DNA of 11,911 nucleotides from Acinetobacter geminorum (GCF_013009345.1 NZ_JABELE010000007.1:166704-178614); one strand, 5' to 3'. Counted from the first letter of the stretch, positions 2,906-11,911 are shown. Notes: a model not told the origin generated them from the letters alone. Numbers and translations are program-made.

Positions 2906-5460
2906 TTGCAGACAGCCTCAGTCATTACCATGCTTTGTTGCTTATTTTGCAACTGATTACTGATGTTGTACTCAACAGAACAACGTTCATTGCTTTCATC
3001 GCCCCATTTCACATAGAGACGATCTTGAGCAAGTGGAGTACGTAAGTAAATCATACTACCTTGTGCAACAATACCGACAGCTTCATCTTTTTGGTTAAAG
3101 ACTTGAGCTGCAAACGGTAAACTATTGCCATCTACAGTTTTACTATTAATGTAAACTGCATAACCAGTTTTAGTCGCAAAATCTACTTTAGCAATTGCGC
3201 CAGCAAAAGGTGCGATACGTTGACTTGTTTCTTCAAGCTCTACTTGGCTCGACATTTCTTGTGGGTCAAGGGTAATGTCATTAAGACGGTACGGAGTAAC
3301 ATAAGGAACTACCGCATAACCCGCTTTATTCACGCTCAAACCAACAGCATTATTAACTTTTGCTCCTGCAGCTTCTGGCGCATGCACAAGTACCATCGTT
3401 TGGCCTTGCTCAGGTCCAAATAAAATACCTTCTGAGTGTGCAACCACACTACCAGTTAAGCTAACCATTGCTTGTTGGTAAGAATCAGCCACACTATAAG
3501 AACCACCAACAGTTGTATAGTTGGTACGATAACGTCCATTTACGTTAAATGATGGATTTGAATAGTCCTGATGTGACATTGAAGCGCCGTAACTAAAGCG
3601 ATCTCCAACCATACCACTTGCACCAACAGTACGACTGTCTTCAGAAGCAGTAACGTTAACGTTAACTGAATTCTTTTTGAAATCAATCGGGAACGATAAT
3701 GTCATTAAATATTCAGTATCGTGTGTTTGATTGGTTGAGCCATATTCAACTTTACGGTTAATTGCAGATAAACCATAAGTTAAACCATGGAAGTTATTAC
3801 TGTAACCAACCTGATATTGTTTAGTACTTTCACTACGGTTCCAATAATCAACCCAAGAACCTACTACATAGAAGTTACCCCAACCTTCAGGTAAACCTTG
3901 GTTTAAGGTAATTTGGAATTCACTACGTTGACGACCAGCAGAGTAGGTATTAATACCTTTTTCTTCAAAATCACGAATCTGTAGAGCATCACGTAATTTA
4001 TAGAAGTTTTCTGTTGAGTAACGATAAGCTGCTAGTGTTAAGTTTGTGTTGGTTGGAGTAATTAACTTGCTATAACTTAAACGGAAACTTTGTCCTGACT
4101 GTGAAGACTGTTTTTCAAATTCAGCTTCAGAGTGGGTTACATCTAACGCCACGGCACCAATTGGTGTAGCAAAAGCGGCACCCAACAGTATAGCGGCATA
4201 ATTTTCAGTTGCTTGTATGCCTGTATAACCTGTTAGGTAATTATTAATCCCTTGTTGATATTTACCTTGAACAACCCAAGGATCAATATCAATATCTGAA
4301 TCACGGAACTGACCAATAGTTAAAGCATAACGATTCATGCCAGGACGAAGCATCTGCACAACAGATGCATAAGGCACAGCAAATTTCTGTATTTCCCCAT
4401 TCGCTTCGATAACAGAAACTTCAATTTCTCCACCAAAACCAGTAGGGTAAAGGTCATTAATTTCAAAGTTACCTGGTGCTACTGTTGTTTGATAGATAAG
4501 TTGGCCTTGTTGACGAACTTCAACTTTTGCATTGGTTTTAGCATTACCACGAATACGTGGAGCATAACCCACCATACTATTTGGTAACATACGATCATCA
4601 CTTGAGAAATCAATACCGCGATAACCATATGAATCAAATATTTCGCCGTTTGTAAAATTATCACCTAGTGTTAAGACACCTCGGTATTTCGGAAATGCTC
4701 TTTGTAAATATGTACTCGTTTCTTCGTAGCTTGACTTAGATTGATTTTCAGCAGGGGTATCCTGCCATTGCCACTGACCATTATGACGTAATTGCCAACC
4801 ACCTAAATTCAACCCAGCAGTCACTCCCATAAACGCATTTGATGTTTCGCGTATATCGCCAGATTGATTAAAAGTCTTATAAGCACTACCGTTATAAGAT
4901 AAAAATCCAGCATTAATACCACGATCCCATACACTTGGGTCGACATAGCCTTGCGCATTTTTTTGCAAAGCAACTTGCGGAATAGAAATATCTACACGTA
5001 AACGAGAGGTATCAAACTCATAAAATGCATTTTCAACCCACTCTTCAATTTTATAACAACTATTATTTTCTTTTTGAAGGGTAGTGTGTTTAGACAAAAC
5101 ATCTTGTTTAACGCCGTACTCAAGCAGGTTTGTTCCTGTGAAACAGGTTACAGCATTTTTATTTGGATCTAATGCTTTAAAGAACATACGACGTTTGCCA
5201 AACCATTGGCCATTTACATAAACGTCAACATTATATTCACCTGGTAAAACAGGATTACCATATTTAAAACGTGAAATATCAACTTTTTGAGCATCACCAA
5301 TTAAAAAAGCAGAATCAAATTCAGCTTCCACTGGTGCACTCGCGGTTGTTTCTTCAGCATGCACGAATACGGGCATTGTCATTGTGACAACACCAGAAGC
5401 CAAGTAGTAACAAATATGGCGTTTTAATAATTTATAAGATTCTTGCCTTTTTTTTGGCAT
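2902..5460 (-). CDS. Fimbrial outer-membrane usher (PapC/FimD family)
   Basis: 852 aa, with a signal-like N-terminus ending VFVHAEE. Usher N-domain motifs FDSAFL and GEYNVDVYVNG, a long beta-barrel-type sequence rich in G/Y/S/N, and a C-terminal Cys pair (ERCSVEY...EAVCK). Positioned between the chaperone and adhesin genes. Confidence 0.93.
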   Translation of the reverse strand: MPKKRQESYKLLKRHICYYLASGVVTMTMPVFVHAEETTASAPVEAEFDSAFLIGDAQKVDISRFKYGNPVLPGEYNVDVYVNGQWFGKRRMFFKALDPNKNAVTCFTGTNLLEYGVKQDVLSKHTTLQKENNSCYKIEEWVENAFYEFDTSRLRVDISIPQVALQKNAQGYVDPSVWDRGINAGFLSYNGSAYKTFNQSGDIRETSNAFMGVTAGLNLGGWQLRHNGQWQWQDTPAENQSKSSYEETSTYLQRAFPKYRGVLTLGDNFTNGEIFDSYGYRGIDFSSDDRMLPNSMVGYAPRIRGNAKTNAKVEVRQQGQLIYQTTVAPGNFEINDLYPTGFGGEIEVSVIEANGEIQKFAVPYASVVQMLRPGMNRYALTIGQFRDSDIDIDPWVVQGKYQQGINNYLTGYTGIQATENYAAILLGAAFATPIGAVALDVTHSEAEFEKQSSQSGQSFRLSYSKLITPTNTNLTLAAYRYSTENFYKLRDALQIRDFEEKGINTYSAGRQRSEFQITLNQGLPEGWGNFYVVGSWVDYWNRSESTKQYQVGYSNNFHGLTYGLSAINRKVEYGSTNQTHDTEYLMTLSFPIDFKKNSVNVNVTASEDSRTVGASGMVGDRFSYGASMSHQDYSNPSFNVNGRYRTNYTTVGGSYSVADSYQQAMVSLTGSVVAHSEGILFGPEQGQTMVLVHAPEAAGAKVNNAVGLSVNKAGYAVVPYVTPYRLNDITLDPQEMSSQVELEETSQRIAPFAGAIAKVDFATKTGYAVYINSKTVDGNSLPFAAQVFNQKDEAVGIVAQGSMIYLRTPLAQDRLYVKWGDESNERCSVEYNISNQLQNKQQSMVMTEAVCK

Positions 5461-5518
5461 AACTAAGTCCGCCTACTCACATAATAGGTGCTTAAATTTA
5501 TTAAAAAGATAAATCTGA

Positions 5519-6253
5519 TTACTGAAGTTTTATTTGGTGTTCGACTCGACCACCATAGTCATTGACATTCATAAAACTCATATCTTGAAGATTGCCATTC
5601 TTAAGCTGAACAGACTCTTCAGAAAAAGGTTTAATCATTAAACCTTGAGGTAATAAATCAACTTTTTTATCACCTGCCTTTTGGTAAACAGAAGTCATCG
5701 TAATGTGGAAAGGAGTTGGATTTTTTACCGTTAAATTCTGACCAGATTTAACCCATTGAAGCTTATCTGCTGCTAAATTCGCATCTTCTTTAATTGAAGC
5801 CGGACGATAGAAGAATTTGATCCGGGAACGAATTGCAAGTTGTAAGAAGTTATCAGGTGTCGTATCTGCATTTTTTGAGGTAGGTCTTGGTGGAATATCC
5901 AAAACGTTTAACCACAAAACAGTTTCTTGCTTCTGGTTAAATTGAGAAGCATTTGGAAGGGCAGTAATACGAAGCGTCTGACTTTTTGTCGCTTCAACAC
6001 GAGAAATTGGAGGAGCAATCATAAAAGGAACTTTTGATTGATCCGGAGTACTTTTTGGATCACCTTCATCAATCCAAGCTTGGACAAGTGCTGGTTTTGA
6101 ACCGTTATTGCTAACTTGTAGCGTAACTTCTCTAGCATCCGACGGATAAATTACACGGGTGCCATGAATTACAATTTCTGCTTGAGCGGCAGGAGCAGCA
6201 ACAGATGAAGCAAACGCCAAACCTAACAAAAAATTATAACTGTTCAATTTCAT
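5519..6253 (-). CDS. Periplasmic fimbrial chaperone (PapD/FimC family), start moved to the internal Met
   Basis: The ORF track starts at 6337, but MKLNSYNFLLGLAFASSVAAPAAQA (ATG at 6251-6253) is a proper signal peptide giving 244 aa, the normal chaperone size. The upstream 28 codons overlap a terminator hairpin. PapD-like motifs present: IVIHGTRVIYP, QAWID, PPISRVEA..SQTLRI, VLWLNVLDIPP, LQLAIRSRIKFFYRP. Confidence 0.9.
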   Translation of the reverse strand: MKLNSYNFLLGLAFASSVAAPAAQAEIVIHGTRVIYPSDAREVTLQVSNNGSKPALVQAWIDEGDPKSTPDQSKVPFMIAPPISRVEATKSQTLRITALPNASQFNQKQETVLWLNVLDIPPRPTSKNADTTPDNFLQLAIRSRIKFFYRPASIKEDANLAADKLQWVKSGQNLTVKNPTPFHITMTSVYQKAGDKKVDLLPQGLMIKPFSEESVQLKNGNLQDMSFMNVNDYGGRVEHQIKLQ

Positions 6254-6294
6254 TTTTCGAGTTCTCAACCAAGAAAGATTCAGGAAAGTGCTAC

Positions 6295-6330
6295 ACAAAA
6301 CAGGGTTTCCATGCGGACATAGAAACCCCG
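6295..6330 (-). terminator. Intra-operon hairpin/attenuator after the major pilin gene
   Basis: On the minus strand: gggtttc (6328-6322) / gaaaccc (6309-6303), 7-bp stem, 12-nt loop, followed by tgtttt. This is the usual arrangement in chaperone-usher operons, keeping pilin mRNA in excess over chaperone/usher mRNA. Confidence 0.55.
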
Positions 6331-6341
6331 CTATCAATTAA

Positions 6342-6875
6342 TTATTGATAGATAATTGTGTATTGAACAGAAGTAGTTACTTTACCAGCAGTAGAAGCAC
6401 CAGTTGCATAGTATTCAGCATAGTAGTTAAGGTCAGCACTTGCACCTTCAGCTACGTCAACCCATTGAGAGTTAGCTTGAGCACCGTTTGCACCAGCAGC
6501 AAGTACTGGGATGAAGTTGTTGTTGCTACCTAAAAGTTGAACGTTAACGTTTTTAGCACCAGTAGCGTCTGTGTTAAGTAAACGACCAGTATTAAAGTCA
6601 ACGTTAGCACCTGGTTCGAAGTAAGTAGCTACTTTACCTTCAGAACAGTTAGCTAATTTAATTTGGAAAGGAGTACGACCAGCAACATCCCCAGCAACAG
6701 CTAAAGTTTGTTTAGAAACAGTTGGAAGAGTAACTGTCAAGTCTTTACCACCGTTATTAACGATGTCACAAGTTTTGTCTGTAACTAAACCATTAATTGT
6801 AATTGTACCATCAGCAGCTTGAGCATTCGCAATCCCTACAACCGAAAGAGCAGCGATCAAAGCAAGTTTTTTCAT
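6342..6875 (-). CDS. Major fimbrial subunit (type 1 / FimA-family pilin)
   Basis: 177 aa, signal peptide MKKLALIAALSVVGIANAQA. Mature N-terminus ADGTITINGLVTDKTCDI (donor-strand motif plus first Cys), second Cys in KLANCSEG, C-terminal strand TSVQYTIIYQ with penultimate Tyr. First gene of the operon. Confidence 0.9.
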   Translation of the reverse strand: MKKLALIAALSVVGIANAQAADGTITINGLVTDKTCDIVNNGGKDLTVTLPTVSKQTLAVAGDVAGRTPFQIKLANCSEGKVATYFEPGANVDFNTGRLLNTDATGAKNVNVQLLGSNNNFIPVLAAGANGAQANSQWVDVAEGASADLNYYAEYYATGASTAGKVTTSVQYTIIYQ

Positions 6876-7366
6876 AGTGTTTTCTCAAAGGTCTGGATAA
6901 AAGTTTAATTCCTTACTTTTCCAGTGTTTGACATCTTGAAAAGTAATGCCGCAATATTAACACTTCTTAAACAAAATGCAAACTACATCACATTATTTTT
7001 TCATATTTTTAATTTTAACACACAATTTATTTGGAATGTAGAGCTAGTATTTACAACTTATGCAGCTGTTTATAAAAGTTTTTTTGTTTTCTGAAAGAAA
7101 GATGCTATGTAAAAAAGTAAGTTACATAAGAACACTATGAAAATTGAAAAGAATTAAACAATTTATGTGAAAAATAAGCTTAAACTCTTAGAATACAATT
7201 ATATAGAATAAACTGTGTATATGTATACAAAAAAATAGACAAATAGTCATTTTTGATGAAAAAGAGCTAACAAATCATCAATTCATAAAAATGTGCGATG
7301 AATTCGACAAATCACTCTTTTATCCAAGCTTACTAATGAAATAAGCTCAAATATTCTAGTTATAAG

Positions 7367-7657
7367 TTAGTGATAATTGATAAGTACAACCTTGTGATTA
7401 GAACCTATACTTTCAATACTAGTGTCCATTTTCTCAGTGTGTTGAGCTAATTTAAAAAGACTATCTTTATTTAAATATTCATTATCAAGTTTAATATTTA
7501 AATTATTTACATCAACACATTCTATCTCACTATGTTCTCTTGAACACGTATCTTCAACAATATTTCCTCTTATCATTATTGTGTTATTTGCATAACAAAA
7601 TAGTGGGGAAGCGGAAAGCACCATCAAAACAAGAAGTTTAAATATATTATTTTTCAT
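7367..7657 (-). CDS. Small (96 aa) signal-peptide protein with pilin-like N- and C-termini; possible internally deleted pilin remnant
   Basis: ATG at 7657 with AGGT about 10 nt upstream. Signal peptide MKNNIFKLLVLMVLSASPLFCYA. The mature N-terminus NNTIMIRGNIVEDTC matches the pilin pattern TIxIxGxhxxxTC of the neighbouring major pilin (GTITINGLVTDKTC). The C-terminus KVVLINYH resembles the pilin F-strand with penultimate Tyr. About 73 mature residues is too short for a full pilin Ig fold. Very AT-rich, so coding status is uncertain. Confidence 0.4.
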   Translation of the reverse strand: MKNNIFKLLVLMVLSASPLFCYANNTIMIRGNIVEDTCSREHSEIECVDVNNLNIKLDNEYLNKDSLFKLAQHTEKMDTSIESIGSNHKVVLINYH

Positions 7658-7980
7658 TTTATATACCTATTTATAAAATAGCTTATATATAGTTGATACA
7701 TTATTTTTAATTTAAAAACAATCATTAAGCTTAAAATAATAAAAATTATTAATTTTCACGTGATATAAATCACATTAACCATTTTAAATAATGTAATAGT
7801 TAAAATTCTTAAACCATATTAATCCATGTAATTAGTTAAAAATTAAATAATTAATATAAATTATTGATATTTAATTAATTTTTAAAAAATAGATTAATAA
7901 ATCAACTAAATGATATATGATTAAACATATAATTTACTTATTTGATTTATAATTTATGTTTCAAAATTATTACCGAGAAA
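7658..7980. other. Extremely AT-rich tract (putative curved / nucleoid-protein-bound regulatory DNA)
   Basis: Hand count: 41 G/C in the 300 nt 7681-7980 (about 14% G+C) and 13 G/C in 7801-7920 (about 11%). No ORF of 60 aa or more on either strand. Confidence 0.7.
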
Positions 7981-8421
7981 TAAAATATGGATTTTAATAA
8001 AAATGTGACCAAATATACATTATCGAAGCAATGTGTAATTAAATTTGCTTTATATTGTAGATCCTGAGTATATAAGATCTAATGAATTAGAATTTAGCAT
8101 ACACTTTAAATATTTTAGGAAAATGAACTAACGAAATATAATTCGTAGATTCCTTTGGATTTAGGTAGGAGAAAAGTTCAATAAAAATCAAACAAGCGAT
8201 TATTAGCCGAACCTAATCATAATTTCTATTTAATTAGATTTATGAATACTATTTATTATGCATCAATAGCAACTTCAGAAGATGCTAGTGCTGAATTTAA
8301 TTAGAATAAAGATTCATTCCACATAGCTAAAACGTACCACAATAGCTAGAAAGAGAAATAAGTACTACAAACAAATGAAGGATAGCTACCAAGCTATGGG
8401 TCAATATTGAATTATATGACT

Positions 8422-8505
8422 GTTCGTATAATGTGATGCACAGATTATGTTACTAAGCCCCAGTGAGAACATTGTTAGTCTCACGGGGCTTTTTAACATC
8501 AATCT
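8422..8505 (+). repeat. Left copy of the 84-nt direct repeat (junction with chromosomal DNA)
   Basis: gttcgTataatgtgatgcacagattatgttactaagccccagtgagaacattgttagtctcacggggctttttaacatcaatct. 83/84 identical to 11828-11911; the only difference is T8427 versus C11833. Sequences immediately upstream of the two copies are unrelated. Confidence 0.95.
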
Positions 8506-8517
8506 GCATTATGCGAA
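8423..8517 (+). other. About 95-nt imperfect (forked) hairpin carrying inverted dif-like half-sites: putative ssDNA attP and/or packaging signal
   Basis: Pairing checked by hand. 8423-8433 pairs with 8507-8517 (XerC-arm-like TTCG(T/C)ATAATG). A 7-nt bulge follows at 8434-8440. 8441-8446 pairs with 8501-8506, with a 1-nt bulge at c8500. 8447-8452 pairs with 8494-8499, followed by 2 mismatches. 8455-8461 pairs with 8485-8491, with a bulge at a8462. 8463-8468 pairs with 8479-8484, closing a 10-nt loop. Confidence 0.65.
8457..8494 (+). terminator. Rho-independent terminator-like hairpin forming the tip of the att/packaging hairpin
   Basis: gcccc(a)gtgaga - 10-nt loop - tctcacggggc followed by ttttt (8490-8494). 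In the circular phage map it sits just after the last + strand ORF, as the f1 packaging-signal hairpin doubles as the gene IV terminator. Confidence 0.6.
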
Positions 8518-8533
8518 TTTGAAGCCGAGGCGG

Positions 8534-8578
8534 GGAGTCCACGTCTTCTAATGGTGGACTCTAGTCCGAAATTTCGGA
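8534..8578 (+). other. Ff-type (+)-strand origin core: nick-site hairpin plus adjacent Rep-binding palindrome
   Basis: ggagtccacgt (8534-8544) and gtggactct (8554-8562) are identical to the f1 origin core as I recall it (GGAGTCCACGTTCTTTAATAGTGGACTCTTGTTCCAAACTGGAACAA). Same 8-bp stem and the same 11-nt loop length (gtcttctaatg versus GTTCTTTAATA). A second inverted repeat, tccgaaatttcgga (8565-8578), follows immediately. Confidence 0.75.
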
Positions 8579-8582
8579 ATTT

Positions 8583-8795
8583 TTATAGATCTTTTGCGTT
8601 TCTTACAACTACTTTTCCATGTGCTGATATCTCAACATTTTCTATAGCTTGATCAAGGATGATGTGTACAAGCTCACTATCCTTGATCGGCTGTAGATTT
8701 TTATTGATCAGAATTTTATTGAGCTCTACACACTTCTTTCGTAGAGATTCTTGCTCTTTGTCATTTAAACGAACTGTTACTGCCATTTTCGTCAC
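8583..8795 (-). CDS. Small DNA-binding regulator, probably ribbon-helix-helix (Arc/CopG-like) phage repressor
   Basis: 70 aa, divergent from rep. The N-terminus (M)AVTVRLNDKEQESLRKKCVELNKIL fits a beta-strand followed by helix A, and DSELVHIILDQAIENV fits helix B. The listed start at 8795 is GTG; an ATG at 8786 (MAVTVRL, 67 aa) is an alternative. No good SD for either. Confidence 0.55.
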   Translation of the reverse strand: MTKMAVTVRLNDKEQESLRKKCVELNKILINKNLQPIKDSELVHIILDQAIENVEISAHGKVVVRNAKDL

Positions 8796-8915
8796 ATTTT
8801 CGGGTTATTAACTTGCATACAATATTACTTGTATATCTGTTATATGTGCTTGCTATTCATGTGTAATTGTATTAAATTCCGCTTAATGTTATTTGTATAC
8901 ATGCGTAATTAGACC
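8796..8915. promoter_or_regulatory. Divergent control region between the regulator and rep
   Basis: Candidate + strand promoter TTGCTA (8850-8855) - 17 nt - TAAATT (8873-8878), about 35 nt upstream of the rep ATG. Repeated word TTGTATA at 8829-8835 and 8893-8899, and its near-complement cATACAA at 8816-8822, forming an inverted repeat atacaa-N6-ttgtat. These are plausible operators. No experimental support. Confidence 0.4.
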
Positions 8916-9800
8916 ATGCTAGATCATATTTGCATAAATGCGCCTTTTGAATCCAGCTTCTACTCAGTAGATGCGGAAGGGCGTTATTTTTTTGTAGATA
9001 TCGATCTTCACAGTATAGAAATACCGCTTGCTTCTCGTTCTGTTCATAAGAATGACGATGGTTCAATTTCTGCTGCTGCGTTATTCCATCCGTTTGAGTC
9101 GGTTCCGACTCATTACACTGGTATGGCAATGAAAGTTTTTTTTGATTCTTCGTATGAACCTTTTGTACAGATCAAGGCTTCTCCTGCGAAATTGCTGCAA
9201 GGGCATAATGTCTTTGGCAGCGACAACATAGAGCAGGGTGCTATGGAAATGATCGGCTTCTTACATGAAGCTTATCCGCTTCTTGCAAGGATGCTAGATT
9301 GGCCTCGTGCATGGGTTTCACATATTGATGTGACTTACTCAGTACGATTGAAAGACCAGAACACAGCTAAAAAAGTTTTGGATTTCTTGAGCAATGTCAG
9401 CAATGGCCAGACTCGTTTAAGTAACAAGCGTTTCGACAGTTCAGTATATTGGGGAGGTCAGACTTCAAGACTTGTGAATCACAAGTGTTATATGAAGCAT
9501 GACGAATTTATCGCTCAATTTGAGGAGTATAAGCAACTTGCAAAGAAGAACGATAAAGCAGCTCAACGAGTTGTTGATGTCATGTCCAATTCGGATCTGA
9601 TTAACTGGACTGTCGGTCTTTTACGTTTTGAATCACGTTTAAAAAAACGTTGGCTTGAACGTAATGGAATTCCTACCAATCTCAGTTATGAAACCTTTTG
9701 TTTAGGGGCCTCTTATGCTCGACCGTGGATTATTTTTGTAGGCATGTTAACTGCCTTCTTCATTGTCACTGGACATTATCGAGGGGGTAGTAATGATTAG
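8916..9800 (+). CDS. Rolling-circle replication initiator, filamentous-phage gene II (gpII / Phage_CRI) family, C-terminally short
   Basis: Motifs shared with f1 gpII as I recall it: HPFESVPTHYTG (f1 HPFESLPTHYSG), IKASPAKLLQGHNVFG (f1 IKASPAKVLQGHNVFG), NVSNGQT, LLRFESRLKKRWL..GIPTNL (f1 LVRFEARIKTRYL..GLPLNL). Candidate catalytic region SSVYWGGQTSR....YMKHDE. It is 294 aa versus 410 aa for f1 gpII. An in-frame stop lies 6 nt upstream of the ATG, so the start is fixed. Confidence 0.9.
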   Translation: MLDHICINAPFESSFYSVDAEGRYFFVDIDLHSIEIPLASRSVHKNDDGSISAAALFHPFESVPTHYTGMAMKVFFDSSYEPFVQIKASPAKLLQGHNVFGSDNIEQGAMEMIGFLHEAYPLLARMLDWPRAWVSHIDVTYSVRLKDQNTAKKVLDFLSNVSNGQTRLSNKRFDSSVYWGGQTSRLVNHKCYMKHDEFIAQFEEYKQLAKKNDKAAQRVVDVMSNSDLINWTVGLLRFESRLKKRWLERNGIPTNLSYETFCLGASYARPWIIFVGMLTAFFIVTGHYRGGSND

Positions 9801-10083
9801 AGGATTAATATTTTTATTGATGTATGTAGGCGAGAAATTCTTAACTACTGCATTTAAAAAATTATTGGCTGGTGCAGGTTTGGGACTTGTTTCATTTGCA
9901 ATTTCACAGTCAGTTTTTTCAATTTTACTTAACTATGTAAACAATCAATTTCAGCAGCTTTCAGGTCTATTTTATTTAATTGACCTTGCGGGGGTTGATG
10001 TTGCTATCAGCTATATTTTGTCTGCAATTTCAATACGCATAACAATGAACGCGGGCAAATTATCGATTAGGAAACTACAATAA
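9793..10083 (+). CDS. Small hydrophobic virion/assembly protein, pVI / Ace-like (96 aa from the ATG)
   Basis: The ORF track starts at a TTG (9763). ATG at 9793 is preceded by GAGGGGG (9781-9787), giving MIRGLIFLLMYVG.... It has several hydrophobic segments, is similar in size to f1 pVI (112 aa) and CTXphi Ace (97 aa), and sits immediately upstream of the pI/Zot gene with a TAATG stop/start overlap at 10081-10085. Confidence 0.65.
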   Translation: MIRGLIFLLMYVGEKFLTTAFKKLLAGAGLGLVSFAISQSVFSILLNYVNNQFQQLSGLFYLIDLAGVDVAISYILSAISIRITMNAGKLSIRKLQ

Positions 10084-11567
10084 TGTTATACGCTATCATT
10101 GCAAAGCCTGGTCAGGGGAAATCATATTTTGCTGTTGTTCGTATGTATGAAGAGCAGCAAAAAAATTTAGAAAATCTTAAAAAGAATGCTCCTATTTTTG
10201 AAGAAAATAGAAAGTTACTAGAAGATCGTGATCTACTAAAACGTGATTTTACGTATACCTATGAGCTAGGTGATAAAACACTTCAAAAAACCTCTAATCA
10301 TGAAGATTTCGATGTGTTGGAGGATGCGGAGCAGTTTGAGGAATATTTCGAATATTACTTTTTTTATAATAAATATATTGAGCAGATTACCAAAGAGGAA
10401 GGAATTGCATTAACTGCATTGCTTCCAGTAAGGCAAATTTATTCAAATATTAACGGTTTAAAAATTGCAGGTGTTTTGCCATTTCCAGATATTGACTGGC
10501 GTAAAACTCCGATGGGTTCTATTCATTACATTGATGAGATTCGTAGACGTCCTCCTTACAAATGGGAAGGCCGAGTACCATCTCAAGATCCAATTATTTT
10601 AGGTATGTCTGAGGTGCGTCATACCGATAAAGATGTATGGCTTATTTCTCAAGATGCAGAAGATTTAAACTATTCGCTTAGACAGTTAATCGATAAGCTG
10701 TATTTTGTTAAAAGACCACCTCAAAACCCACAGGCTTGCGGTATTTATGTATTCGATAAATATCTTAGTCGCCCACGTGATGCAGCAGATTCACAACGCG
10801 ATCCGAAGAAGTATGTTGATTATTTTCTGTTAGTTTATAAAAAGAAATTTCAACGCATGTATGTTAGTGCATCTTCTCATACATCAATGAAATTCAGGAT
10901 TTCGCCAAAAGTATTTGCATACATATTTTTGTTTTTTGCCATATTAACGATTGCCATTGTCGGCTTTATGAAAATACCTATTTTTCAAAGTTTTGGCAGT
11001 GCAATTAAGCAAATGACAGGACAGGAAAAAGATGCATTTAGTCAATTACAGTCGGGACCTCAAGTTGCTGATGACAAGTCGAAATCTATGGCTGACAAAT
11101 TAAAATATGAAGCTGAGTGCGGTACTTTAACACCAGAACAATGTGCTGATTTGAAGAATCCAGAAGTCAGAAATAATCAACTACAGCAAGTAAATGATGT
11201 TCGTATGGAGACAATTGCAGTCAAGTACAATCCGAATAGGCCTTATGATGTTGATACTTCAAAGATTGAGTATCAAGTGACGTCTAAGCCTGTATTTGCG
11301 GGCTGTATGAAGAAAAAAGGTAGATATGTTGCTTACACTGAACAGGGCACAATTTTGCATGATGTGAGCCAGTCAGACTGTGCGAAACTGATTGAAGATA
11401 ATGACCGTCCGTACAACTACTTTAAGCAGCAATCACAAGGTTTTTCGCAACCACAGCAGGCACAACAATTGCCACAGCAACCACAACAAGCTGATTACCC
11501 GTCTCGATATAAAGAGGCTGAAATTATCGCTAAGTACGAGGCAGCAAAACAGCAAGGCTTAATTTAA
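10083..11567 (+). CDS. zot: Filamentous-phage assembly ATPase, pI / Zot family
   Basis: N-terminal Walker A AKPGQGKS (residues 7-14) and Walker B HYIDE (148-152). DVWLISQD matches f1 pI DIIFLVQD. One TM helix VFAYIFLFFAILTIAIVGFM (277-296) is followed by a ~198-aa C-terminal domain. AGGAA lies 10 nt upstream, and the start is coupled to the previous gene. Confidence 0.92.
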   Translation: MLYAIIAKPGQGKSYFAVVRMYEEQQKNLENLKKNAPIFEENRKLLEDRDLLKRDFTYTYELGDKTLQKTSNHEDFDVLEDAEQFEEYFEYYFFYNKYIEQITKEEGIALTALLPVRQIYSNINGLKIAGVLPFPDIDWRKTPMGSIHYIDEIRRRPPYKWEGRVPSQDPIILGMSEVRHTDKDVWLISQDAEDLNYSLRQLIDKLYFVKRPPQNPQACGIYVFDKYLSRPRDAADSQRDPKKYVDYFLLVYKKKFQRMYVSASSHTSMKFRISPKVFAYIFLFFAILTIAIVGFMKIPIFQSFGSAIKQMTGQEKDAFSQLQSGPQVADDKSKSMADKLKYEAECGTLTPEQCADLKNPEVRNNQLQQVNDVRMETIAVKYNPNRPYDVDTSKIEYQVTSKPVFAGCMKKKGRYVAYTEQGTILHDVSQSDCAKLIEDNDRPYNYFKQQSQGFSQPQQAQQLPQQPQQADYPSRYKEAEIIAKYEAAKQQGLI

Positions 11568-11625
11568 ATTTCTTCTCTTTGATTACAAAAACCGTCTATT
11601 TGATGTAACGTAGCTGTATAGAAAA

Positions 11626-11709
11626 GTGTCTTCAGGGGAATTGAGACACATCGAGTAAACACTTAAATCTTGTACAATTTTTGCGTGTCTCAAGGCGTAG
11701 TCTAGACAC
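11626..11709. repeat. Two inverted repeats built from the same hexamer: GTGTCT-N12-AGACAC and GTGTCT-N13-AGACAC
   Basis: GTGTCT at 11626-11631 / AGACAC at 11644-11649; GTGTCT at 11685-11690 / AGACAC at 11704-11709. They lie in the 159-nt gap between zot and the 32-aa ORF. Function unknown (operator pair, or ssDNA hairpins of a minus-strand origin). Confidence 0.8.
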
Positions 11710-11726
11710 TTTGGCGGGTGGGATAT

Positions 11727-11825
11727 ATGACAAATGATGATATTGCTTTAGTACTTTTTTTGATTTTTATCTTTTTTGCAGCCCTCTACTATGTTTTGAA
11801 ATCCATTAAAGAAACTTCGCTCTGA
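11727..11825 (+). CDS. 32-aa hydrophobic peptide, candidate small coat protein (pVII/pIX/pVIII-like)
   Basis: Not in the ORF track (too short). ATG at 11727 is preceded by gggtggg. Translation: MTNDDIALVLFLIFIFFAALYYVLKSIKETSL, with an acidic N-terminus, a 19-residue hydrophobic core and a Lys-containing C-terminus. Stop at 11823-11825, 2 nt before the repeat. Short ORFs are easily spurious. Confidence 0.4.
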   Translation: MTNDDIALVLFLIFIFFAALYYVLKSIKETSL

Positions 11826-11827
11826 AA

Positions 11828-11911
11828 GTTCGCATAATGTGATGCACAGATTATGTTACTAAGCCCCAGTGAGAACATTGTTAGTCTCACGGGGCTTTTT
11901 AACATCAATCT
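11828..11911 (+). repeat. Right copy of the 84-nt direct repeat, truncated by the window edge
   Basis: Same sequence as 8422-8505, offset 3,406 bp, with C at 11833. It starts 2 nt after the stop of the 32-aa ORF. Confidence 0.95.
11863..11900 (+). terminator. Second copy of the same terminator-like hairpin, directly downstream of the 32-aa ORF and zot
   Basis: Identical sequence to 8457-8494 (offset 3,406). Hairpin plus T5 about 40 nt after the stop at 11825. Confidence 0.6.

Follow-up and report, generated by a model that had tools for sequence, protein, structure and literature searches.

Does the chromosome of Acinetobacter geminorum carry a filamentous phage with a naturally short replication initiator, or is the short protein the scar of a deletion? 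The question is raised by an open reading frame (ORF) of 294 amino acids (aa) located on the plus strand at positions 8916-9800 of a stretch of 11,911 nucleotides from this organism (GCF_013009345.1 NZ_JABELE010000007.1:166704-178614), hereafter the window. A sequence-only reading of the window had recognized the first part of this ORF as a Rep protein of the gpII family, its end as a remnant of a pIII-type membrane anchor, and the unit that contains it as either a deletion derivative of a filamentous phage or an unusually minimal inovirus. Comparison with an intact relative decides between the two: the unit is a deletion derivative of a full-length phage. We are highly confident that the unit at 8417-11911 is a defective copy that lost 3,157 bp in one non-homologous deletion and is most likely a decaying prophage.

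An intact phage at the same site delimits the deletion

In the related locus L002 (GCA_039887275.1), the same chromosomal position, with the fimbrial operon on one side and adeC/adeB/adeA/adeRS on the other, is occupied by an intact phage of 6,563 bp, whose flanks are 99.98% identical to those of the window. Its genes follow the order regulator, a Rep of 407 aa, a 107-aa gene at the position of gene V (gV), small ORFs, an 89-aa coat protein with a weak Phage_Coat_B match under the Pfam cutoff, a 506-aa pIII-like protein, a pVI-like protein and a Zot-like protein. Compared base by base, positions 3240-9683 of the window correspond to L002 1-6444 with one mismatch, at 8913; from 9684 on the window resumes at L002 9602, with 99.9% identity by blastn. 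The unit thus measures 6,563 bp in L002 and 3,406 bp in the window, a difference of exactly 3,157 bp that comprises L002 6445-9601.

Rep codon 256 ends at the deletion junction (9683/9684, plus strand), and pIII codon 469 begins directly after it; since both breaks fall on codon boundaries, Rep residues 1-256 read in frame into the pIII anchor. The joint shows no microhomology, although the motif CCAAT is found 3 nt before the breakpoint in both parental sequences, and no notable fold was detected around it (window 9620-9820, z=-0.73). Between the two breaks lay the C-terminal domain of Rep with its gpX-like start, the 107-aa gV-position gene, an internal hybrid dif site, the small ORFs that take the place of gVII/gIX, the gene for the major coat protein and codons 1-468 of the pIII gene, all of which are lost. 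The earlier proposal that the gene order is that of phage Ff (M13/f1) with the middle block taken out is therefore borne out by L002, which carries the missing block at the same site and so provides the longer version for which a search of related genomes had been proposed; the absence of the gV-position gene, the major coat gene and most of the adsorption gene is fully accounted for by the 3,157 bp lost. The Zot and pVI proteins of the window were found residue for residue in three other contigs, L002 among them (for Zot, L002, L003 and L004). As both are identical to those of the intact phage, the deletion must be recent.

The single mismatch lies 3 nt upstream of the Rep ATG, at position 8913, where the window has A and the two copies in L002 have C.

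Arrays of tandem prophages are difficult to assemble, and we did come across spurious short pIII fragments produced by error-prone long-read assembly (L097/L098), so that the junction might be suspected of being an assembly error or a chimeric read. This is highly improbable: assemblers collapse at repeats, and the sequences joined here share none; the join is clean and on codon boundaries, with intact genes downstream; and an analogous junction in a second lineage (the L010 type, below) is reproduced in independent assemblies.

The 294-aa protein is a chimera of Rep and a pIII-like protein

The first 256 codons (8916-9683, plus strand) encode the N-terminal domain of an initiator of the gpII/X family. 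Pfam PF05144 (G2P N-terminal) matched residues 1-258 of the ORF (E=4.4e-50), and in the NCBIfam model TIGR01629 (rep_II_X) residues 3-256 corresponded to model positions 2-259 of 407. Residues 1-256 are 100% identical to the same residues of the 407-aa Rep P0001, and the similarity to full-length Rep ends exactly after L256, at nucleotide 9683. The alignment with M13 gII (V00604) is colinear up to GLPLNL in M13 and GIPTNL in the window, as had been read from the sequence, and Y192, which is retained, aligns with the catalytic Tyr-197 of M13. Beyond GIPTNL the window protein shares nothing with M13 gII in this alignment; its C-terminus is therefore not gpII sequence.

The sizes on which the original comparison was based, 410 aa for f1 gpII and 111 aa for gpX, agree with those of M13 (gII, 410 aa; gene X, 111 aa). 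The window ORF has neither the C-terminal G2P_X_C domain (PF05155) in a Pfam scan nor a gpX-type internal start, whereas the 407-aa parent Rep carries both PF05144 and PF05155, the latter on residues 309-400, and the methionine in its QTMKLTDD segment aligns with the start of M13 gpX. No solved structure matches Rep by sequence, and an AlphaFold2 model of the 407-aa protein was poor (mean predicted local distance difference test score 58.6), with residues 256-285 helical if anything.

If the short Rep were the native protein of a minimal inovirus or of a satellite resembling RS1, relatives of the same length would be expected. Searched against 5.8 billion protein clusters, the ORF had 752 Rep homologues; in each of the best 120 the match is confined to residues 1-256 (87% of the query) and leaves out the tail. 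Nearly all of these 120 have 405-407 aa and both Pfam domains, the shorter ones being annotated as partial or located on short contigs. The only recorded occurrence of the fusion protein (WP_170248585.1) is on a single 198,810-bp contig of Acinetobacter geminorum, and its junction sequence was not found in the GTDB representative genomes, IMG/VR or the JGI metagenome contigs. It is true that compact, satellite-like units exist and that short Rep-only modules (attachment (att) region, regulator, Rep, gV-position gene and dif) are common at this locus, but these modules carry the full Rep of 405-407 aa and neither pVI nor Zot. Furthermore, the junction cuts two ORFs, both sides of which are at least 99.9% identical to the intact phage. 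A natively minimal element is thus very hard to credit, and of the two possibilities offered by the sequence-only reading we retain the deletion and discard the minimal inovirus, on the basis of the L002 phage and of the 120 homologues whose match stops at residue 256.

The remaining 38 codons and the stop (9684-9800, plus strand) are a remnant of a pIII-like adsorption gene, consisting of the anchor and a short polar tail. Several lines of evidence converge on this assignment. The 38 residues are identical to the C-terminus of the 506-aa pIII-like protein of L002, and they hold the sole transmembrane-grade hydrophobic stretch of the 294-aa protein (residues 268-286, Kyte-Doolittle 1.60). The curated NCBIfam model NF041109 ('TspB C-terminal domain') matched residues 254-287 with 34.7 bits, above its cutoff of 24. 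By BLASTP the tail aligned without gaps to residues 411-448 of the 449-aa TspB-like adsorption protein of phage M02 (E=6e-5), and in PHROG residues 254-292 weakly matched the very C-terminus of phrog_7568, a family that also includes the 506-aa L002 protein. One NCBI annotation of the source contig names a 43-aa protein starting MPTNLSYETFC as a member of the TspB C-terminal domain family; neither this protein nor the fusion protein had an exact match in the contig index. The tail also displays the C-terminal traits of the NF041109 family, namely a conserved Cys, a hydrophobic anchor, a short polar tail and a position directly upstream of a DUF2523 gene. As anticipated, the stop of the ORF (TAG, 9798-9800) overlaps the pVI-like gene, whose ATG lies at 9793.

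The assignment of the tail to a pIII-type anchor consequently stands, except that its likeness to Ff is one of arrangement: the 506-aa protein showed no similarity to M13 pIII by BLASTP (best E 0.51), and the 'pIII' label hence derives from gene position and architecture and from the TspB_C_term family, not from homology to Ff.

The deletion within a dif-site array

In L002 the Zot gene is followed by a second att site, a regulator, a Rep, the 107-aa gene and then the chromosomal dif, so that the neighbouring unit consists of att hairpin, regulator, Rep, gV-position gene and dif, with no coat genes. The true dif, TTCGTATAATGTATATTATGTTAAAT, is located at 13833, and a hybrid site, TTCGTATAATGTATAATATGTAAATA, at approximately 7266. 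The homology between the first and second units stops within the dif central region, where the hybrid site reads TTCGTATAATGTATA|ATATGTAAATA and the true dif TTCGTATAATGTATA|TTATGTTAAAT; this implies that the L002 array is composed of a resident Rep-only module and a full phage presumably integrated by Xer recombination. The deletion in the window spans the hybrid dif site. On the left, the flank and the att copy, with its host-type XerC arm TTCGTATAA, are identical to L002; at the right end, the XerC arm of the att copy at 11823-11911 is TTCGCATAA, like that of the internal copies of L002.

These data bear on where the deletion took place. It might have arisen in the episomal replicative form, as a miniphage, the resulting 3.4-kb circle being integrated afterwards at dif through the att hairpin. 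The deleted segment is contiguous in the circular phage genome and in the array alike, both the origin and the att hairpin were retained, and miniphages of Ff and Pf are known (PMC11996451). Nonetheless we consider this route rather unlikely, because the left flank and left att copy are as in L002 and a deletion in situ takes one step fewer, and because a circular 3.4-kb contig with the junction was not found in IMG/VR or the JGI metagenome contigs. We therefore favor a deletion within the integrated prophage.

At the dif locus of L006, L007, L013, L014 and L085-L094 we also observed arrays made up of short modules resembling RS1, each with att hairpin, origin, regulator, Rep, gV-position gene and dif. 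They sit beside adeC or other host genes, six or more modules can occur in tandem, and modules with two unrelated types of Rep, Phage_CRI and Rep_trans, are interspersed among full prophages.

Similar fusions in other lineages

To which extent is this fusion a unique accident? Among other arrays encoding the identical 407-aa Rep, a second event was identified in L010 (6374-7318), and also in L015 and L017, in which Rep residues 1-275 are joined in frame to the last 39 aa of a different pIII, of 515 aa. Here 3,131 bp were lost, with 1 nt of microhomology, and the intact parent, L011/L012 (L011 3243-7318), is 99.98% identical on both sides. The resulting 314-aa fusion, WP_171072240.1, is present on four contigs. 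When 85 loci were screened by tblastn for a Rep N-terminus lacking the C-terminal part of Rep, only these two Rep::pIII events were recovered; the screen was blind to the right-hand end of the deletions.

A third event came to light in L099 (3106-3324), L100 and L101, where the first 24 codons of a 98-aa gV-position gene are joined in frame to the last 48 aa of a pIII protein, pVI and Zot following the fusion. Its parent is a Rep_trans-type phage with a 483-aa pIII (L088 11414-13996), and the event is present in several ENA metagenome assemblies. It was found in a profile search with pIII tails, an approach biased to in-frame, tail-retaining cases and of low sensitivity, given that it yielded only 8 short proteins.

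The three events, all in frame and all retaining the anchor, pVI and Zot, raise the possibility that the architecture is selected, that is, that in-frame fusions of a replication-module ORF to the pIII anchor form a class of mini-prophages or cheater satellites that recurs in the dif arrays of Acinetobacter. The benefit would be either to preserve the coupled translation of pVI and pI or to produce a membrane-tethered Rep fragment that hinders incoming relatives. In support of this idea, the three events are independent, the first two came from a search that could not see the right-hand end, and the 'cheater miniphages' of Pf arise by independent deletions with edges only a few nucleotides apart (PMC11996451). 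Several findings nevertheless make such selection clearly unlikely. Three events among approximately 160 Zot-bearing units scanned means that they are rare, the third was retrieved by the biased search, the window junction occurs in one genome only, and the function proposed for the fusion is putative. Besides, no conserved ssDNA (single-stranded DNA) structure was found at the 3' end of gIII across 27 lineages (mean z -0.1 for -130 to -10 nt and 0.0 for -60 to +60 nt relative to the gIII stop). The unit is still most likely a prophage in decay that has become fixed in a single strain of Acinetobacter geminorum.

Mechanisms that could underlie such junctions were also considered. Slippage driven by microhomology does not fit, as the junctions of the fusions share only 0-1 nt. 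A Rep-mediated deletion at pseudo-nick sites is not supported: neither endpoint is the origin and the flanks, inspected by eye, do not consistently resemble the nick site CTTCT|AATGG. Nor was there support for the idea that the right edges coincide because of a packaging hairpin acting in cis at the 3' end of gIII, the mean z being about 0. To our knowledge, no packaging signal has been defined for this phage group.

Some candidates for further events were discarded: the short pIII fragments of L097/L098 are frameshifts of the long-read assembly mentioned above, and other short pIII-tail proteins result from insertion sequences (IS) in gIII (L102, L029) or from truncation at contig edges. The IS elements themselves lie about 55-60 codons before the gIII stop (L029 11913-13121 and L102 5424-6452), each leaving a 53-aa C-terminal ORF upstream of pVI. 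Other damage seen in related units includes a split Zot gene and Rep fragments. An ENA contig of 645 bp (P0140) encodes a 74-aa ORF combining the N-terminus of a short-chain dehydrogenase with a pIII tail; it could mark a further deletion with its edge at this position, or else the contig may be chimeric.

The att region and the plus-strand origin

The unit starts with an attP-like region (8417-8530, plus strand) in which two inverted dif-like Xer sites surround a hairpin, as judged from a pattern scan, the direct repeat and the predicted fold. In the pattern scan the first site (8423-8452, plus strand) is composed of TTCGTATAA, 13 nt and TTATGTTA, and the second (8494-8517, minus strand) of TTCGCATAA, TGCAGAT and TGATGTTA. 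As ssDNA, the region 8423-8517 is predicted to form a long forked hairpin of -38.4 kcal/mol (z=-7.6), and none of 200 shuffled sequences folded as well. Every unit in the related arrays begins with the same att region, which by these features is an attP of the CTXphi type.

Immediately downstream lies the core of the plus-strand origin (8534-8579, plus strand), recognized by homology to the M13 origin: a nick-site hairpin, GAGTCCAC/GTGGACTC, followed by the palindrome TCCGAAATTTCGGA. Local alignment with the M13 core (M13 5766-5810) gave a score of 53, compared with 18.3 +/- 3.4 (maximum 32) for shuffled sequences. In M13 the gIIp protein introduces its nick between 5780T and 5781A, attaching itself covalently by means of Tyr-197 (PMC5405960). 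The corresponding positions read GGAGTCCACGTCTTCT|AATGGTGGACTC in the window and GGAGTCCACGTTCTTT|AATAGTGGACTC in M13, and by homology the nick is predicted between T8549 and A8550. The origin of this Acinetobacter phage is still recognizably M13-like, nick-site hairpin included, despite the distance between the hosts.

Thus, the components that the sequence-only reading had listed as kept are all present: the att hairpin (z=-7.6), the origin (score 53), the regulator (PHROG 5642) and the assembly ATPase (PHROG 197).

Expected behaviour of the unit

Our explanation is that a single non-homologous deletion of 3,157 bp in a phage of about 6.56 kb of the 'Af' type generated the defective unit 8417-11911. 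Such a unit would be unable to make the capsid, the adsorption protein or the gV-position protein, and its truncated Rep, devoid of the gpX-equivalent domain, is probably unable to carry rolling-circle replication to its end. If a Rep were provided in trans, it could nick the origin of the unit and give rise to a 3.4-kb single-stranded circle; in L002, such a Rep is encoded by the next, Rep-only unit. Packaging of this circle would require a superinfecting full-length phage.

It had been suggested that the neighbouring copy might serve as the full-length helper. This is unlikely if that copy is like its L002 counterpart, which lacks coat genes: such a copy might provide Rep and the gV-position protein, yet no capsid.

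Three considerations count against regarding the unit as simply inert and decaying. The window ends within the next att site, and the Rep-only unit downstream is deduced from L002. The truncated Rep keeps the whole Pfam N-terminal domain and the tyrosine aligned with Tyr-197, so that its inactivity is a prediction. Finally, in-frame deletions of this type arose independently in two further lineages, which hints that the architecture may be favoured and not a product of pure decay.

Relation to known filamentous phages

The closest known relatives of the parent are the Acinetobacter 'Af' phages (M02, OQ693633; Narancic et al. 2024, PMC11209303; PMC12285184), which have the same Rep family and the same att region. 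The Rep codons 1-256 of the window share 88% nucleotide identity with M02 Rep, whereas its pIII, pVI and Zot belong to another lineage than those of M02. 'Af' phages have the common order Rep, gV-position gene, coat, TspB-like pIII, DUF2523 and Zot and occur in tandem arrays with replication/regulation modules; what distinguishes the window unit is the loss of the block from the Rep C-terminus to the pIII N-terminus. In A. baumannii, filamentous prophages have been described in tandem arrays flanked by replication/regulation modules (PMC11209303), and the authors likened them to CTXphi and Ypf (PMC11209303; PMC12285184), citing the CTXphi model in which phage DNA is produced from tandem origins (PMC11209303 and PMC12285184).

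The parent phage can be classed as an inovirus of the 'Af' type that combines a Rep and origin resembling those of Ff with a predicted CTXphi-like Xer/dif integration module. With Ff it shares a Rep colinear with gII in the part retained in the window, a homologous ori core, the order II(X)-V-...-VIII-III-VI-I and, in full-length Rep, both the Tyr-197-aligned tyrosine and the methionine aligned with the gpX start. It differs from Ff in having no gene IV, an integrative lifestyle and a pIII-like protein in which BLASTP detects no similarity to M13 pIII. As in the CTXphi/RS1 arrays at the dif site of Vibrio cholerae, two inverted dif-like sites are predicted to fold as ssDNA into a forked hairpin and, in L002 and the related arrays, the prophages adjoin the chromosomal dif and full copies are mixed with Rep-only modules; unlike in CTXphi, Rep is of the Ff gpII type with an M13-like origin and not RstA, and the use of Xer is a prediction. 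Nor is the window unit an analogue of RS1, having neither an intact Rep nor an RstC-like gene.

In Ff, the loss of capsid genes by large deletions is classically known as the miniphage, or defective-interfering, phenomenon. The window unit resembles the Ff miniphages and the Pf cheater miniphages (PMC11996451) in its one large deletion, the loss of capsid genes, the retention of the origin, the expected need for a full-length helper and the independent recurrence of similar deletion edges. It departs from them in that its deletion is fixed in a chromosomal dif array, in that it also truncates Rep and drops the gV-position gene while keeping pVI and pI, and in that the unit is known here from sequence alone.

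The window therefore contains a non-autonomous copy, recently shortened by deletion, of a filamentous prophage type already known in Acinetobacter. In terms of annotation, the 'replication protein' WP_170248585.1 is a Rep::pIII chimera, and the strain should not be counted as a phage producer. The locus offers a clean, datable example of decay at the Acinetobacter dif locus, by the AdeABC efflux operon, with intact and deleted states in near-identical backgrounds. Recurrence across three lineages is the only aspect that could go beyond the ordinary. If a census confirms it, natural Acinetobacter isolates would be tied to the 'cheater miniphage' dynamics of the Pseudomonas Pf experiments, and it would become possible to test which portions of gIII, gVI and gI have to be retained; if the class is truly selected, the window would hold a member of a class of cheater or immunity elements, and not a random wreck.

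Other features of the window

The prophage is a single filamentous-prophage unit delimited by a direct repeat of 89 nt (8417-8505 and 11823-11911, 97% identity), the right copy (plus strand) being the att copy of the next unit, cut by the window end. Between the repeats the order is a divergent regulator, the 294-aa Rep ORF, a DUF2523/pVI-like gene, a 494-aa Zot/pI-like gene and a hydrophobic ORF of 32 aa.

The small regulator (8583-8795, minus strand; 67-70 aa) belongs to PHROG 5642 (E=4.4e-26), a family of unassigned function, and is kept at the same position in all related units. Pfam gave a weak hint only, to DUF6290 (E=0.053), and the sequence reads as having ribbon-helix-helix character. 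The pVI-like minor coat gene (9793-10083, plus strand; 96 aa) encodes a DUF2523 protein (PF10734, E=4.2e-7; PHROG 1242), of which full-length relatives carry an identical copy.

The gene for the pI/Zot-like assembly ATPase (10083-11567, plus strand) is intact; the 494-aa product matched PHROG 197, 'Zot-like' (E=3.6e-42), and contains the Walker A motif GQGKS. Its Pfam Zot match is marginal (E=0.029). It is about 140 aa longer than the 354-aa protein of phage M02, and by eye the extra residues correspond to an acidic/aromatic insertion of about 95 aa directly after Walker A and to a Q-rich C-terminal tail. The 32-aa hydrophobic ORF (11728-11826, plus strand), read from the sequence between Zot and the next att site, gave no match above threshold in family searches; its counterpart in the full-length phage is at L002 11636-11743.

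The left two thirds of the window are Acinetobacter chromosome, the prophage unit extending from 8417 to the window end. The host genes at the left comprise an alcohol dehydrogenase gene (3' part only), a DUF4882 gene and, on the minus strand, a fimbrial operon of the chaperone-usher type. The spacer between this operon and the prophage (7367-8400) is extremely AT-rich (GC 18-24%) and includes a 96-aa ORF that matches phrog_25569 (E=3e-60) and occurs at the same position in the related loci examined; its hydrophobic N-terminus resembles a signal peptide.

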